A stretch of DNA of 64,000 nucleotides from Dehalococcoidia bacterium (GCA_963555985.3 OY820591.1:2272001-2336000), one strand, 5' to 3'. Positions 24,441 to 30,398 are shown, numbered from the stretch's first letter. Program-made: numbers and translations. The notes: a model not told the origin generated them from the letters alone.

Positions 24441-25109
24441 ATGGCTGCGCTCGTTCCTGCAAGACCAAAGGTCTACCACATCGTCCACGTGGATCGGCTG
24501 GCCTCCATCATCGCCACTGGCGTGCTGGTCAGCGACGTTGTGACGACAGGAGGCAATTTTCCAGGCACGACGATCGGCATGAAGGGCATAAAGGAGCGTC
24601 GTCGCAACCTGGGGCTGCACAGCCAACCTGGGCTCCGCGTGGGCGAATGCGTTCCGTTCTATTTCTGCCCTCGCAGCGTAATGCTCTATGTCATTGCTCG
24701 TCGCAACCACGAGAATCTCGACTATCGCGGCGGTGAGAGTCCGATCCTCCACCTTGAAGCCGACCTCTATGACTCCGTCGCTTGGGCAGATGCGCGTGGT
24801 TACCGGTGGGCCTTCACGACCGGAAATGCTGGATCGCACTACTTCCAAGACTATGCCGATCTTTCAGAACTGCACCGGATCGACTGGGATGCCATCGCGA
24901 CGCACTCTTGGTCTGCGGTACGCGACGAGAAACAGGCCGAATAGCTCGTTGAGGAACAGTTCCCCTGGACTCTGGTTTCCCGGATTGGGTGTCGCACTGA
25001 GGCGACTTGGCGACGAACTGTCAACGCGGTTATGGAGTCTCAACACAGACCTTCCGTTCGGGTTATGCTTGACTGGTACTACAACCTCGACGACAGGGCA
25101 TCACGATGA
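24441..25109 (+). pseudogene. darT: DarT (DUF4433) DNA ADP-ribosyltransferase toxin with in-frame TAG at 24942-24944
   Basis: YHIVHVDRL, VPFYFCPRSVMLY, KQAE*LVEEQFPW..VSRIG and WYY; the extended frame ends in TGA overlapping the darG ATG. Confidence 0.88.
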
Positions 25110-26152
25110 TCGAGTTCAAGACCGGCGACATTTTTGCCGAAGACGCCGAGGCGCTCGTCAACAGCGTCAACTGCGTCGGCGTGATGGGGCGAGGCGTCGC
25201 TCTCCAGTTCAAGAACACTTTCCCTGAGAATTTCCAAGCCTATCGCTCAGCCTGCGATCGAGGGGAAGTGCAGCCCGGAGCGATGTTCGTCTTTGAGTCA
25301 CGGACACTTGGGAACCCGCGCTACATCATCAACTTCCCAACCAAGCGGCATTGGCGCAGTAAGAGCCGAATGACCGACATCGAAGCGGGACTCGCGGCGC
25401 TCGCGGACGAGATTCGAGCTCGAGGTATTCGCTCTGTCGCGCTCCCCCCTCTGGCCACCGGGCTTGGCGGATTGAGTTGGGCACAAGTGCGCCCGGCAAT
25501 CGAGAACGCCTTGCGGGACCTCAATGAGGTTCGTGTCACAGTGTTTGAGCCCGGCAGCGTTCCTGCCGACGGACGGCCGAACCGTTCTCGCACCGCGCCA
25601 AAAATGACTGTCGCTTCGGCTGTCCTGATCGGACTCATGGACCGCTACTTGCGCGGGTTATTGGACCCGTTCGTCACGCTTCTTGAGATTCACAAGCTGA
25701 TGTATTTCTTGCAGGAAGCAGGCGAACCACTGCGGCTTGACTACCGGAAGGCCGCGCACGGACCCTATGCGCCAAAACTGCGATTCGTCATGCGCGCCCT
25801 TGAGGGACATTACACGATCGGATACCGCGACGGCGGTGACGCGCCAACGAAAGAAATCCGGCTGGTCCCCGGCGCCACCCAAGACGCCATGCAATTCCTC
25901 GAAACCAAGCCCGATACCCGTGAGCGATTCGCGCGAGTCAGCGAGCTCGTAGACGGCTTTGAGTCCAGCTTTGGGCTTGAGCTTCTATCCACCGTGCACT
26001 GGGTTGCTATGCAACATCCGACAGCAACTGACGAAGCGCTGATCGAATTCACGTACGGATGGGGTCGTCACAAACGCAAGTTCGCGCCACGACAGATTCG
26101 GTTGGCCTTGTCCCACCTTCGCCAACACGGCTGGCTGCTTGAAGCGAGTTAG
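25106..26152 (+). CDS. darG: DarG macrodomain antitoxin
   Basis: GDIF, NSVNCVGVMGRGVALQFK, INFPTKRHW, KLMYFLQ and GLELLSTVHW motifs. Confidence 0.93.
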   Translation: MIEFKTGDIFAEDAEALVNSVNCVGVMGRGVALQFKNTFPENFQAYRSACDRGEVQPGAMFVFESRTLGNPRYIINFPTKRHWRSKSRMTDIEAGLAALADEIRARGIRSVALPPLATGLGGLSWAQVRPAIENALRDLNEVRVTVFEPGSVPADGRPNRSRTAPKMTVASAVLIGLMDRYLRGLLDPFVTLLEIHKLMYFLQEAGEPLRLDYRKAAHGPYAPKLRFVMRALEGHYTIGYRDGGDAPTKEIRLVPGATQDAMQFLETKPDTRERFARVSELVDGFESSFGLELLSTVHWVAMQHPTATDEALIEFTYGWGRHKRKFAPRQIRLALSHLRQHGWLLEAS

Positions 26153-26886
26153 TGCCCAACGCGATAGCGCAGGAACAACTCTCCAGTTGTTCCCCGCGCC
26201 GCCGCCAGCAAATCGAGACTCACCAGCTCGCTACGCACTGCCTCTCCCTCCCACTGCACCGCTCCGTGCCCGACCTCGCCGCCCACTACCCTCGGCGCAA
26301 GCGTCAGAAAGTACTCGTCGACCAACCCCAGACGCATCAGCGACCCGTTCAAGGCAGCCCCACCCTCCACCAGCACCCGCTTGGCGCCGAGCTCTGCTTG
26401 CATGTGCGCCAGCGCCGCCGCAACTTCATTCCCCGACGGCACGTTGATGACTGGCCTTCCTCGTGACTCGAGGGCCTGCCGAACTTCTCTCGGGGCTGCG
26501 TCGGAGAGATAGACCACCGCCTCGAACGACTGATCCGTGAAGAAGCGGCGTTCCGGAGGGAGGTTGCCGCTGCGGGTGATGACAGCGGCGATTGGGGTTC
26601 GTGACATGCCGCGGGACAGACGCCATTGCTCAAGGTCTTCGCGGTTGAGGCGGGCGGAGGTACCGCTGGCGCGGAAGGTGCCGCCGCCGTTGACGACGAC
26701 GTCGAAGTGGACGCGGAGCTCTCGCATGAGGCGTTGGTCGGTCTCCGAGCCGAGGCCGCGTTCGGTGCCTTCCACTACCGTCTGTCCGTCCGCCGACATG
26801 ACCATGTTGACCGCCACGTAGGGCCGATCGGCGGGCGGCGGCGGAAACTCGAGTCCGGTGTAGTCGAGAGGCTGGTCGGACATCAT
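26149..26886 (-). CDS. RibD C-terminal/DHFR-fold reductase
   Basis: RPYVAVNMVMSADG, VEGGAALNG and LVDEYFLTLAP motifs. Confidence 0.9.
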   Translation of the reverse strand: MMSDQPLDYTGLEFPPPPADRPYVAVNMVMSADGQTVVEGTERGLGSETDQRLMRELRVHFDVVVNGGGTFRASGTSARLNREDLEQWRLSRGMSRTPIAAVITRSGNLPPERRFFTDQSFEAVVYLSDAAPREVRQALESRGRPVINVPSGNEVAAALAHMQAELGAKRVLVEGGAALNGSLMRLGLVDEYFLTLAPRVVGGEVGHGAVQWEGEAVRSELVSLDLLAAARGTTGELFLRYRVGH

Positions 26887-26908
26887 CCGCTCATGCTAGG
26901 TTCGGCTC

Positions 26909-27151
26909 ATGGCGGAGCATGATCAGGTCGAGCACGACGACGAGCCTGAGGACGAGGAAACTCCATCGCGCGAGTTTCCGATCGGGCCAACGGCTCGTTT
27001 CACGATCGGCGGCAAACCGGTCGTGCTGGACGACTTCATCGATATCACGACCGGCGACCTCGCCAGCCGCCCTCGCATCGAACCAGTCGAACAGCCCCCG
27101 CCGGTACCCAAAGCAGTCGTCTGGAACGCCCGCCGCCCGCTGGACGACTAG
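26909..27151 (+). CDS. Hypothetical protein (80 aa, acidic N-terminus)
   Basis: Fills the gap between two minus-strand genes; host-like codon usage. Confidence 0.55.
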   Translation: MAEHDQVEHDDEPEDEETPSREFPIGPTARFTIGGKPVVLDDFIDITTGDLASRPRIEPVEQPPPVPKAVVWNARRPLDD

Positions 27152-27537
27152 CCCTCATCGTCGCGACGAAGTTCGGCGTACTCCCCGGCCGAAAGCAACC
27201 CCTCCGCGACCTTGCTGACCTCAATCTCAAGCAGCCAGGCGAGCTCATAGGGCGATTCATTCACCAGTTCCGGCCGCTCAATCGCCGCCTCGTTGCGCGC
27301 AATCACCCGCCCGGAGGCCGGAGACACCAGATCGATCACTGCCTTGGCCGACTCGATCACCCCAAAGGCCTGGCCCAGGTCGAGCCGCGAACCAGGCGCT
27401 GGAAGTTCGAGATAGACCACATCCCCCAGCTGATCCTGCGCATAGTCAGTCACACCCAGGCGGCGAATATCGCCGCTTGCACTGAGCCAGAGATCGTCGT
27501 CGGTGTAGCAGAGGCTGTCCGGTGTCTCGAACTCCAT
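27148..27537 (-). CDS. gcvH: Glycine cleavage H-like lipoyl carrier protein
   Basis: GVTDYAQDQLGDVVYLELP, ESAKA lipoyl-Lys and VNESPY motifs. Confidence 0.92.
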   Translation of the reverse strand: MEFETPDSLCYTDDDLWLSASGDIRRLGVTDYAQDQLGDVVYLELPAPGSRLDLGQAFGVIESAKAVIDLVSPASGRVIARNEAAIERPELVNESPYELAWLLEIEVSKVAEGLLSAGEYAELRRDDEG

Positions 27538-27543
27538 TGCCGC

Positions 27544-28014
27544 TCAGTTGTCCCCGTAGTCCGCTTCCCAGGTGATCTCGATCGCGTCTTTGACGCTCTC
27601 GTGCGCCGGACAGCCGGCGGCATGGAACTTGACCGCGCGGTCGGCGGCGGCGCGCTGGTCCTCCGATATGTCGGGCAGGTGGAAGACGACGTGGATCTTG
27701 GTGATGTGGATCGTCCGGTTGTCGTCGCCCTCGATCGTGCCCAAGACATCAGCCTTGTACGTGTTGGGGTCGAACTCGACCTTGCGCGCGGACAACGCCC
27801 GCGCGAGGGTGCCGTACATTCAACCGCCCACCGCAGCCACGATGTGGTCAAGCGTCGCCGCCACCGGCGGCGCTTCGGCGGGTACGCCGTAGTGCTCCTT
27901 GAGCTTGCCCTGCACGCCGTAGACGACCGGCTCAGGCACATCGCCGAGCGTCGCGTGGCGCATCCCGTTGCGGAGTTCGAGCTTGTTGCGGGAGATGTAT
28001 TCGAAGCGGGCCAT
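27544..28014 (-). CDS. OsmC-like selenoprotein (Sec at TGA 27822-27820), 156 aa
   Basis: Two abutting in-frame ORFs; LDHIVAAVGG-U-MYGTL occupies the OsmC peroxidatic Cys position; second Cys in GCPAHESV. Confidence 0.88.
27785..27805 (-). promoter_or_regulatory. Candidate bacterial SECIS hairpin
   Basis: CGCGCGGGC-GTT-GTCCGCGCG stem 14 nt after the UGA; G-initiated loop. Confidence 0.7.
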
Positions 28015-28032
28015 CTGAGACTCCTGAGTCCG

Positions 28033-29205
28033 TTAGCTGCTCGCCAGTAGGGTACGCATTCTGTCGACGCCTTCGACGATCTCCTCCAGCGAGGCGGCGT
28101 AGCTGAAACGCAGGTAGCCTTCGCCGAGGTGTCCGAAGCTGGTGCCAGCGATCACGGCGAGTCCGGCTTCTTCGAGCAGGCGTTCCTGGAGCGTGCGCGC
28201 GTCGATGCCGGTCTGGGCGATGTTGGGGAAGGCGTAGAACGCGCCGAGCGGGTTGACGCAGCTGACGCCAGGCACATCGTTGAGTTCCTTGACGATGACT
28301 TTGCGGCGCTCGTCGAAGGCGGTGGTCATGATGTCGACCGCTTCCTGCGGACCGTCGAGCGCCTCGATCGCGGCGTACTGCGTGGCGGCGTTGGGGCAGG
28401 AGTAGCTGTTGATCGCCAGCCGCTCGGCGAAGGGGAAAAGGCCGGGCGGGAAGACGCCGAAGCCCAGCCGCCAACCGGTCATGGCATAGGTCTTGCTCCA
28501 GCCGTCGAGCACGATCAGGCGGTCGCGGAGCTGCGGATAGTTGAGCCAGGAGGTGTGTTCGAGACCTTCGTAGAGGATGCGTGAGTAGATCTCGTCGCTG
28601 AGGATGACGACGTTCGGCCACTGTTCAAGGCCCTCGACCAGGCGCTCGACCTGATCGCGGCTGTAGACGCCGCCGGTCGGGTTGGCCGGGCTGTTGAGGA
28701 TGATCAGGCGGGTGCGCTCGTTGATTTGGCTGAGCACCTGATCGGGATCGAAAGTGAAGCCGCTCGACTCGTGCAACTCGATCGGCACCGGCGTCGCGCC
28801 GGAGAAGCGGATCACCGACTCGTAGATGGGGAAGCCCGGGTTCGGGTACATGATCTCGACGCCCGGCTCGCCCATCAGCAGGGCGGCGAAGAACATCACC
28901 GGCTTGGCGCCGGGGGTGATCAGGACTGATTCGGGATCGACCTCTGCGCCGTGGCGGCGTTGGAGATCACGGGCGACGGCCTCGCGCAGCTCCGGGATGC
29001 CCGCCCCGGGCGTGTAGCCGTGCTTGCCCTCGGCGAGAGCTTGGGAACCGGCGTCGACGATATTGTCGGGCGTGGCGAAATCGGGCTGTCCGATGCCGAG
29101 GTTGATGATCGAGCGTCCCTCAGCGGCGAGCTTGTTGGCGCGCGCCAAGACCTCGAACGCGGTCTCAGTCCCCAGGTTCTGCGCTGCGACGGTCGGGAGC
29201 ACCAT
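28033..29205 (-). CDS. PLP-dependent aminotransferase class I/II
   Basis: LGIGQPDF, NSPANPTG, SDEIY and SKTYAMTGWRLG motifs. Confidence 0.95.
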   Translation of the reverse strand: MVLPTVAAQNLGTETAFEVLARANKLAAEGRSIINLGIGQPDFATPDNIVDAGSQALAEGKHGYTPGAGIPELREAVARDLQRRHGAEVDPESVLITPGAKPVMFFAALLMGEPGVEIMYPNPGFPIYESVIRFSGATPVPIELHESSGFTFDPDQVLSQINERTRLIILNSPANPTGGVYSRDQVERLVEGLEQWPNVVILSDEIYSRILYEGLEHTSWLNYPQLRDRLIVLDGWSKTYAMTGWRLGFGVFPPGLFPFAERLAINSYSCPNAATQYAAIEALDGPQEAVDIMTTAFDERRKVIVKELNDVPGVSCVNPLGAFYAFPNIAQTGIDARTLQERLLEEAGLAVIAGTSFGHLGEGYLRFSYAASLEEIVEGVDRMRTLLASS

Positions 29206-29270
29206 GAACAACCTCCGATGGGGTCTAGCCTGACATCCCACGACCTCTCATGATAGGCAGGCCCCGGCGA

Positions 29271-30398
29271 ATGGCGGCTCAAACAACGGCTGGACCAGTC
29301 GAAGAATCCGGCCGGATCACCAACCTGGACGCGCTGCGTGGGATCGCGGTGTTCGGCATCCTGCTGATGAACGCCGTCTCCTACGGGCTGGAGCCGGCGG
29401 CCTACTTCAACATCAGCCTGGCCAACGACACGCCGCTCGACTGGATCATCGGCGTGTTCGGCGAGGTGGTCGTCGATCAGCGCTTCATGGGCGTGTTCTC
29501 GCTGCTGTTCGGCGCGGGGATCGTGCTGTTCGCCGATCGGGCGGACGCCCGGGGCAATCGCGGAGGTTGGCTGAGCTTGTGGCGCAACCTCTTACTGCTG
29601 GGCATCGGCGCGCTGCACATGTGGCTGTGGGAAGGCGACATTCTGGTCGCCTACGCAATCGCGTCGCCGTTCCTGCTGCTCTCGCGGCGGCTGCCGAACC
29701 GGGCGTTGCTCGCGCTGGGCGGCGCGCTGGTGCTGGGATCGGCGGCGATCTTCGCGGCGCTTCAGACCGGCGTCGATCCCGACGGTCGGCAGTTGGGCGA
29801 GCTCTGGTTCACGTCCGGCGAAACCGATGAGACGCTGGAGTCCCTGTTTCTGCTGACGTTCTTCATGCGGGCATTGGGGATGATGATGATCGGCGTCGCG
29901 CTGTTCCGCTCGGGACTGCTGAGCGGCGAGCGTTCGCGCGAGTACTACCGGCGGATGGCTGTGATCGGACTGGACATCGGCCTGCCGCTGGCGGCGCTCG
30001 GCGTAGGGATCACCGCACTCGATGACTTCGGGCCCGGTACCGCCTTGCTTTCGATGATCCCGAACACGGTGGGAACGATTCCAGCGACGCTGGGCATCTG
30101 CGCGTTGATCATCCTCTGGAACATGGGCGGCGAGTCGGTCTGGCGGCGGCGCGTGCACGCCGTGGGGCGAATGGCGCTGACGAACTATCTAACCCAGACG
30201 ATCCTGGGGATCATCTTCCTGCGCACGCTGTTCGAGCCGGACGATCTGAACCGCGCCTGGGTGCTGCTGTTCGTAATCGTCGTCTGGGGCGCGCAGCTGT
30301 GGTGGTCGCAGTGGTGGCTGTCGCGCTTCCGCTACGGCCCCTTCGAGTGGGTCTGGCGGGTGGCCACATATCGCCGAATGCAGCCGCTGCGCCGGTGA
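29271..30398 (+). CDS. DUF418 family membrane protein
   Basis: RITNLDALRGIAVFGILLMN, GRMALTNYLTQ and FRYGPFEWVWR motifs. Confidence 0.9.
   Translation: MAAQTTAGPVEESGRITNLDALRGIAVFGILLMNAVSYGLEPAAYFNISLANDTPLDWIIGVFGEVVVDQRFMGVFSLLFGAGIVLFADRADARGNRGGWLSLWRNLLLLGIGALHMWLWEGDILVAYAIASPFLLLSRRLPNRALLALGGALVLGSAAIFAALQTGVDPDGRQLGELWFTSGETDETLESLFLLTFFMRALGMMMIGVALFRSGLLSGERSREYYRRMAVIGLDIGLPLAALGVGITALDDFGPGTALLSMIPNTVGTIPATLGICALIILWNMGGESVWRRRVHAVGRMALTNYLTQTILGIIFLRTLFEPDDLNRAWVLLFVIVVWGAQLWWSQWWLSRFRYGPFEWVWRVATYRRMQPLRR

Follow-up and report, generated by a model that had tools for sequence, protein, structure and literature searches.

Known electron donors of the peroxidase Ohr are lipoylated E2 proteins, and a lipoyl-dependent Ohr peroxidase was reportedly described by Cussiol et al. 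in 2010. For Trichomonas vaginalis, a relay of the hydrogenosomal OsmC with the L and H proteins, which belong to an incomplete glycine decarboxylase complex, was reportedly shown by Nyvltova et al. in 2016, as summarised in PMC7946386. A bacterial counterpart was proposed for Hyphomicrobium denitrificans, where the protein GcvH_1 (Hden_1299) is encoded near OsmC (Hden_1301) and is named as its probable electron donor in passages of a preprint (bioRxiv 10.64898/2026.10.01.755906). Moreover, OsmC-like selenoproteins were described in 2005 in the Sargasso Sea survey of Zhang, Fomenko and Gladyshev (passages of PMC1088965) and are listed as PF02566 with the motif UxxT in a passage of a 2026 review (PMC13188914). 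Here we describe a gene pair from a stretch of 64,000 nucleotides of a Dehalococcoidia bacterium (GCA_963555985.3 OY820591.1:2272001-2336000), which is called the window in the following. The pair consists of an OsmC-like gene, predicted to encode a selenoprotein that we named OsmC(U), and a gcvH gene directly downstream. It appears fairly probable that both form a two-gene redox unit, in which lipoylated GcvH, recharged by dihydrolipoamide dehydrogenase (Lpd) and NADH, would reduce a selenocysteine (Sec)-dependent OsmC peroxidase.

On the minus strand an aminotransferase gene is followed by the OsmC-like open reading frame (ORF) and then by gcvH (Table 1). The original prediction had described these three genes as co-oriented with gaps of 18 and 6 bp, and the coordinates agree: 18 nt (28015-28032) separate aminotransferase and OsmC, 6 nt (27538-27543) separate OsmC and gcvH, and positions 27148-28014 span OsmC plus gcvH including the gcvH stop. 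OsmC(U) and gcvH are almost certainly co-transcribed. It had also been noted that neither gcvT nor gcvP lies in the window, and this extends to the whole assembly, a metagenome-assembled genome (MAG) of 3.33 Mb with a completeness of 96.4% and a contamination of 7.5%, in which zero matches were obtained for gcvT (TIGR00528, PF01571) and gcvP (PF02347). The single full GcvH of this genome matches PF01597 with 107 bits, passes TIGR00527 barely (116.6 versus 115.85) and NF002270 with 125.9 versus 117. It carries the lipoyl-lysine motif with Lys65 in ESAK, a residue which we take to be the lipoylation site from what is established for the GcvH family. The protein is GcvH by sequence, but stands outside any glycine cleavage system and is a true orphan. 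One Lpd above cut-off is encoded inside an E1-E2-Lpd (pyruvate dehydrogenase, PDH) operon, and LipB, above TIGR00214, adjoins LipA. All parts known from Trichomonas, which are OsmC, H protein and dihydrolipoamide dehydrogenase without P and T, are found here. In the relay that we propose, LipB and LipA would lipoylate Lys65 of GcvH, and Lpd, present as a single copy in the PDH operon, would reduce lipoyl-GcvH using NADH. Dihydrolipoyl-GcvH would then reduce the selenenylsulfide (or selenenic acid) of OsmC(U), which, with U65 as peroxidatic and Cys135 as resolving residue, may reduce organic or lipid hydroperoxides or H2O2.

The distribution of both genes was analyzed in 41 genomes from one family (the family sample), among them G000, from which the window derives, and in a wider set comprising the best 80 of 469 related stretches, which were obtained by a pattern scan with one genome per species; many of these 80 loci come from genomes already present in the family sample. 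Genomes (G), genera (g) and loci (L) carry our own numbering. gcvT and gcvP co-occur in the same 22 of the 41 family genomes and are both absent from the same 19. Among these 19, 14 hold OsmC(U) together with GcvH, four hold neither (G002 and G011 of g3, G050, and G010, which is 84% complete) and one contains only a GcvH fragment (G016, 79% complete). OsmC(U) without GcvH is found in none of the 41 family genomes, and a full GcvH without OsmC(U) in none of the 19 that lack gcvT and gcvP. In the family sample, GcvH thus outlives the loss of gcvT/gcvP only where OsmC(U) is present. In 11 of the 14 genomes gcvH lies directly downstream of OsmC(U), namely in the window's genome, eight genomes of g8, G048 (g9) and G049 (g7), and in G001 it is found some 260 nt upstream. 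The g8 genes even overlap, with the OsmC stop and the gcvH start merged into TGATG or GTGA. OsmC(U) is furthermore present in 21 of the 22 genomes with a glycine cleavage system. There it stands directly upstream of gcvT-gcvH-gcvPA-gcvPB in G003, and on the same strand as gcvH at a distance of about 4.5 kb in three g5 genomes and about 7.7 kb in G009. Within the 80 wider loci, 12 have gcvH immediately behind OsmC(U) and one has it in front, the order OsmC-gcvT-gcvH occurs in one (L137) and gcvP within 4 kb in one; L139 has OsmC, an LplA/LipL-like gene, gcvT, gcvH and gcvP in this order. At least five distinct gene neighbourhoods contain the pair: aminotransferase-OsmC-gcvH, UGSC-OsmC-gcvH, LuxR-flanked OsmC-gcvH, OsmC-gcvH-amidohydrolase, gcvH-OsmC, OsmC-gcvT-gcvH-gcvP and OsmC-LplA-like-gcvT-gcvH, and L119 and L120 show adjacent pairs in new surroundings. 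The neighbours of unlinked OsmC(U) loci are varied, with no alternative recurring partner.

A tree was built from 36 GcvH sequences. One clade (99/100) with a long stem unites the OsmC-adjacent copies from the window's genome (g1), from G049 and from the eight g8 genomes; the motif IESAKAVIDL does not vary among these ten, and the canonical GcvH of g7 and g9, which are linked to gcvT, fall outside the clade. The copies of G048 and G001 fall elsewhere in the tree on long branches, and those of L119 and L120, when added, group in another small clade. Purifying selection acts on the orphan GcvH, with ratios of nonsynonymous to synonymous substitution rates (dN/dS) of 0.076-0.201 in g8 (seven pairs) and of 0.405 for the window GcvH versus G044, a comparison in which dS is near saturation. 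Two full GcvH genes are found only in G005, and the OsmC-linked and the canonical GcvH types occur together in none of the 41 family genomes. Taken together, these comparisons speak for OsmC(U) and GcvH being a functional pair.

Several findings weigh against a coupling of the two proteins. The original prediction had called for a survey of the synteny of OsmC(U) and gcvH, and in this survey the linkage recurs, as in the 11 adjacent pairs among the 14 genomes, and is not universal: no gcv gene lies within 4 kb in 64 of the 80 wider loci, where contig ends cut some flanks, and OsmC(U) can therefore work without an adjoining GcvH. In 16 of the 21 OsmC(U) genomes with a full cleavage system OsmC(U) is far from gcvH, and most genomes of g7, the nearest genus, show an aminotransferase-OsmC-orf80 slot without gcvH. 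G024 and G054 retain an orphan GcvH far from OsmC(U). In g3 an unrelated 143-codon gene replaces the pair between aminotransferase and orf80, so that the pair was exchanged in one step, and G050 is also without an aminotransferase orthologue; such joint losses of neighbouring genes need no functional cause and on their own are weak evidence. Because the genomes are related, the independent events are few, with perhaps six to eight losses of the cleavage system, and a single origin of most adjacent GcvH copies is possible since the deep nodes of the tree are unresolved. OsmC-GcvH fusion proteins were not found in a GcvH search among longer proteins, which is a weak negative; the two longer proteins matched were both gcvT-gcvH fusions. 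Furthermore, the lipoyl domain of the PDH E2 could be an alternative donor to GcvH. The claim that this GcvH is the dedicated reductant of OsmC(U) is therefore supported as far as an orphan state, co-retention, purifying selection and the stop/start overlap in g8 can support it, and the word dedicated goes beyond this in view of the 64 loci without linkage, most of g7 and the two unlinked orphans.

Two further explanations of the pair were rejected. That the orphan GcvH is kept mainly as a lipoyl relay does not agree with the presence of LipB and E2 in all 41 family genomes, including four without GcvH, because of which GcvH is unnecessary for lipoylation. A read-through fusion was considered as well, with OsmC and gcvH of the window sharing a frame and being separated only by TGA-GCG-GCA; of 13 adjacent pairs only 3 have both genes in one frame, with TGA, TAG and TAG as stops, and the arrangement is thus not conserved.

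The main rival reading, possible but rather unlikely, is that the adjacency is simply inherited. An ancestral OsmC(U) would have stood beside gcvTHP, and a deletion of gcvT and gcvP would have left gcvH behind. OsmC(U) would then receive its electrons from thioredoxin, another thiol or the lipoyl domain of the PDH E2, and the orphan GcvH would serve another lipoyl-dependent enzyme, act as a lipoate reservoir or have a moonlighting role. The assumed starting point does exist, as OsmC(U) is located directly upstream of gcvT-gcvH-gcvP in G003/L041 and L137, and the distances of 4.5-7.7 kb between OsmC(U) and gcvH in g5 and g10, the unlinked orphans of G024 and G054 and the many relatives with OsmC(U) alone fit this history, too. 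However, purifying selection on the orphan GcvH, the overlap of stop and start in g8 and the persistence of the pair while gene order varies between lineages speak against a mere remnant, and so does the fact that no cleavage-less family genome holds a full GcvH without OsmC(U). The lipoyl-relay role, with LipB and E2 also in the GcvH-less genomes, is unlikely as a reason for its retention, and an ancestral OsmC-gcvTHP operon would itself hint at a link to the H protein.

Besides the two-gene relay, a broader version of the same idea can be considered, which we hold to be tentative at best: the H protein may be the native donor of the selenoperoxidase in two modes, operon-linked and after loss of glycine cleavage. 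In the first mode, represented by the operon OsmC(U)-gcvT-gcvH-gcvP, OsmC(U) would directly oxidise the dihydrolipoyl-H that arises from glycine cleavage, and glycine oxidation would fund peroxide removal, bypassing NADH. In the second mode, the cleavage enzymes being lost, the GcvH lineage would have been remodelled into a dedicated, thioredoxin-like lipoyl carrier with recharging by the Lpd of PDH; signs of such remodelling could be seen in the long branch leading to the clade, in the motif ESAKAVIDL and in the way gcvH start and OsmC stop overlap in g8.

Some loci of the survey have additional peculiarities. In two g7 genomes, transposase genes of the DDE and IS110 types (L019 1-1344; L021 178-1125 / L044 3070-4014) are located just downstream of OsmC(U) and occupy the position held by gcvH in the window. 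In G048 (g9) a UGSC-family gene (PF24696; L038 4558-5094) that is split by a stop lies directly upstream of OsmC(U)-GcvH and probably encodes a second selenoprotein. G023 (C4:766831-769694) has gcvT, gcvH and gcvP each in two pieces, gcvH with a TGA, which is either a decaying cleavage operon or due to assembly errors in this 88%-complete genome. The LplA/LipL-like protein between OsmC(U) and gcvT-gcvH-gcvP in L139 (4449-5273) has 275 residues, belongs to PF21948 and gives weak matches to GcvH:protein octanoyl and lipoyl transferase models. In a Clostridia MAG (L157 719-1243) an ORF with a GRDB domain, of the glycine/sarcosine/betaine reductase B family, follows OsmC(U).

The genome holds one OsmC-family gene. 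Its product passes PF02566 with 39.7 bits versus a gathering threshold of 27.5 over residues 56-150. It scores 20.3 bits against the NCBIfam model NF041052 (OsmC-related (seleno)protein) with a cut-off of 95, and OsmC(U) is therefore a member of another subfamily. An AlphaFold2 model from 19 sequences has a mean predicted local distance difference test score (pLDDT) of 83.2, with residues 21-50 being poor and the N-terminal 50 residues at 54-64. With this model Foldseek found 56 PDB matches at E <=0.001, and among the matches listed (32 of 56) nearly all are Ohr/OsmC entries or structural-genomics relatives, with template modelling (TM) scores of 0.47-0.64. The best fold matches are Ohr/OsmC structures, including Ohr bound to dihydrolipoamide (6ebd, 6ebg). 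A search of PDB sequences with the single sequence gave spurious matches only (protein A repeats, TATA-binding protein). The family profile aligns with E. coli OsmC (1qwi, E 0.018) and places U65 on Cys59 and C135 on Cys125, the peroxidatic and the resolving cysteine of that enzyme. All 19 aligned sequences have Cys135, and 18 of them carry U or C at position 65, the remaining one S. Arg19 in the first beta-hairpin, Asp56 and Glu139 are invariant, and the motif Cys135-Pro-Ala-His-Glu-Ser-Val-Lys and the sequence TLDHIVAAV preceding Sec are invariant or nearly so. Profile and model point to an OsmC/Ohr-type protein that has Sec in place of the first catalytic (peroxidatic) cysteine, and hydroperoxide reductase activity is predicted for it.

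The OsmC-like selenoprotein might instead be a thiol/selenol oxidoreductase other than a peroxidase. Its target or partner would be the GcvH lipoyl group, as in lipoyl-arm repair or redox control, or it would reduce another oxidised substrate. We consider this improbable. The protein is a divergent family member, as seen from its low score against NF041052, from the absence of a true relative in the single-sequence PDB search and from a profile match to E. coli OsmC at E 0.018 only; its N-terminal 50 residues are poorly modelled, and the OsmC superfamily includes members of unknown activity. However, both catalytic cysteine positions are retained, with Sec at the first, Arg19, Asp56 and Glu139 do not vary, and Ohr/OsmC peroxidases, the dihydrolipoamide-bound Ohr among them, match the fold best, all of which is in better agreement with a peroxidase.

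The OsmC-like ORF stays open only with read-through of the TGA at 27820-27822. An OsmC orthologue was detected in 35 of the 41 family genomes with a protein identity of 59-92%, and all 35 have exactly one in-frame TGA, which is located at the same codon. The aligned codon is also TGA in 80 of the 80 wider loci, which include relatives down to 58% identity and, besides Chloroflexota, MAGs of Methylomirabilota, Actinomycetota and Bacillota; many genomes are common to both sets, which makes the counts depend on each other. Among protein database entries, contiguous natural forms with Cys (P0014) and Ser (P0034) at the Sec site were found, most matches are C-terminal fragments of about 90 residues, and the W or R that a few full-length entries have at this site can be read as a mistranslated or altered TGA. 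The genome contains selA, selB and selD, all above cut-offs, and a tRNA-SeC with the anticodon tca (ARAGORN). Its selD (G000 C1:1998583-1999506) has an in-frame TGA of its own, and SelD is therefore itself a selenoprotein here. selA occurs twice with identical scores (G000 C1:1680550-1681896 and C7:5496-6842), which is probably due to a duplicated contig in an assembly with an estimated contamination of 7.5%. A candidate Sec insertion sequence (SECIS) hairpin starts 14 nt past the UGA and is GC-rich with nine pairs (minimum free energy (MFE) fold, z -2.4). It is predicted in 22 of 22 distinct orthologue sequences with z-scores of -2.2 to +1.2, and in the fixed window register 80.9% of cells pair compared to 16-65% for slid controls. 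Less favourable for the selenocysteine reading is that the hairpin gives moderate support only: RNAalifold recovered no shared register, and covariation in the fixed register is weak, a single pair being changed on both sides. Judged from all these sequences, the in-frame TGA is not a matter of chance and the selenocysteine reading is well supported, so that the OsmC-like gene can be regarded as a selenoprotein gene, as originally predicted from the window. That the TGA is a true stop and the locus a split or dead OsmC gene with small ORFs of 64 and 91 codons, which is how gene callers annotate it and what the 90-residue database fragments and the weak SECIS covariation would suggest, is highly implausible given the same TGA between conserved flanks in all these relatives, the contiguous Cys form, the full Sec machinery and the equally TGA-containing selD.

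Table 1. Features of the OsmC(U)-gcvH locus, with positions counted from the first nucleotide of the window.
Feature	Position	Strand	Basis
Class I/II aminotransferase	28036-29241	-	PF00155, E 8.7e-64
OsmC/Ohr-fold selenoprotein gene (predicted), 156 codons	27547-28014, stop TGA 27544-27546	-	PF02566, 39.7 bits
In-frame TGA, predicted Sec65, motif VGG-U-MYGT	27820-27822	-	Profile alignment to E. coli OsmC Cys59
GC-rich hairpin, candidate SECIS	27785-27805	-	Nine-pair stem in MFE fold
Cys135 codon within GCPAHESVK motif, second (resolving-type) cysteine	27610-27612	-	Aligns with E. coli OsmC Cys125
Orphan gcvH, 129 codons	27151-27537, stop 27148-27150	-	PF01597, 107 bits
GcvH Lys65 codon, expected lipoyl-lysine in IESAKAVIDL	27343-27345	-	Family knowledge
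80-codon ORF (orf80), convergent to gcvH	26909-27151	+	Without Pfam or NCBIfam family

The aminotransferase scores below every NCBIfam cut-off and is probably an upstream neighbour that is co-transcribed with OsmC-gcvH. It was rejected as a part of the module because its synteny with OsmC is confined to the close genera g1, g7 and g8 and because g3 retains the aminotransferase without OsmC and gcvH. A scan of positions 26800-29500 gave no promoter-like site and a single terminator-like site, which lies within the aminotransferase gene and is no more than was found in shuffles, and Rfam at gathering thresholds gave zero family matches across the whole window. On the opposite strand, orf80 overlaps by 4 nt with the end of gcvH at its stop codon and is conserved with 41-70% identity beside RibD_C in relatives. 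Also on the opposite strand and about 1 kb from the OsmC-gcvH unit, the window contains a DarT/DarG type II toxin-antitoxin pair (24441-24944 and 25106-26152, both plus strand), with DarT at 162 bits versus a cut-off of 150 and DarG at 433 versus 250 (NCBIfam equivalogs).

If it operates in this way, the relay would represent a selenium-dependent bacterial variant of the peroxide defence by lipoyl-H-protein and OsmC, which has been demonstrated so far only in Trichomonas hydrogenosomes, and it would explain why an orphan gcvH is retained in many genomes after loss of glycine cleavage. For annotation this means that a lone gcvH beside a split OsmC gene should not be called a glycine cleavage remnant, and that both OsmC fragments need merging into a single selenoprotein, of which public databases mostly show the 90-residue C-terminal piece. 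Among uncultured Dehalococcoidia this lineage is common, with many members coming from sponge and marine metagenomes according to record titles, and the module may therefore matter for oxidative-stress tolerance in these habitats.

A Sec-containing OsmC coupled to GcvH was not found described in the literature searched (titles and abstract openings), and the passage on OsmC-like selenoproteins in PMC13188914 mentions neither "GcvH" nor "glycine cleavage". The relay mechanism itself is not new, given the Trichomonas precedent and the H. denitrificans proposal, and the gain is incremental because Sec-OsmC, lipoyl-dependent OsmC/Ohr and the H-protein donor have each been published already. With the OsmC-like selenoproteins of 2005 the protein shares the OsmC fold, a UGA-encoded Sec at the first redox cysteine and a downstream hairpin, whereas its motif is U-x-x-x-T (UMYGT) instead of UxxT, and it is of a different subfamily than these and NF041052. 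In common with the lipoyl-dependent Ohr it has the two-cysteine Ohr/OsmC fold and the proposed dihydrolipoyl reductant (PDB 6ebd, 6ebg), but the candidate donor is a free-standing GcvH here and the predicted catalytic residue is Sec. H. denitrificans likewise encodes a bacterial GcvH-like protein near OsmC that is proposed as donor; that organism, however, possesses glycine cleavage genes and a classical GcvH besides, and Sec is unmentioned in the passages of the preprint, whereas the genome described here has no cleavage system and a single GcvH. In its parts the system agrees with that of Trichomonas, as both have an OsmC-family peroxidase or its predicted counterpart, an H protein and a dihydrolipoamide dehydrogenase, both are without P and T, and the same path from NADH via L protein, lipoyl-H and OsmC to peroxide is proposed. 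The locus differs from Trichomonas in that it is bacterial and known from sequence alone, the genes are adjacent, the peroxidatic residue is predicted to be Sec, OsmC is of a divergent subfamily and the H protein belongs to a separate, fast-evolved clade.

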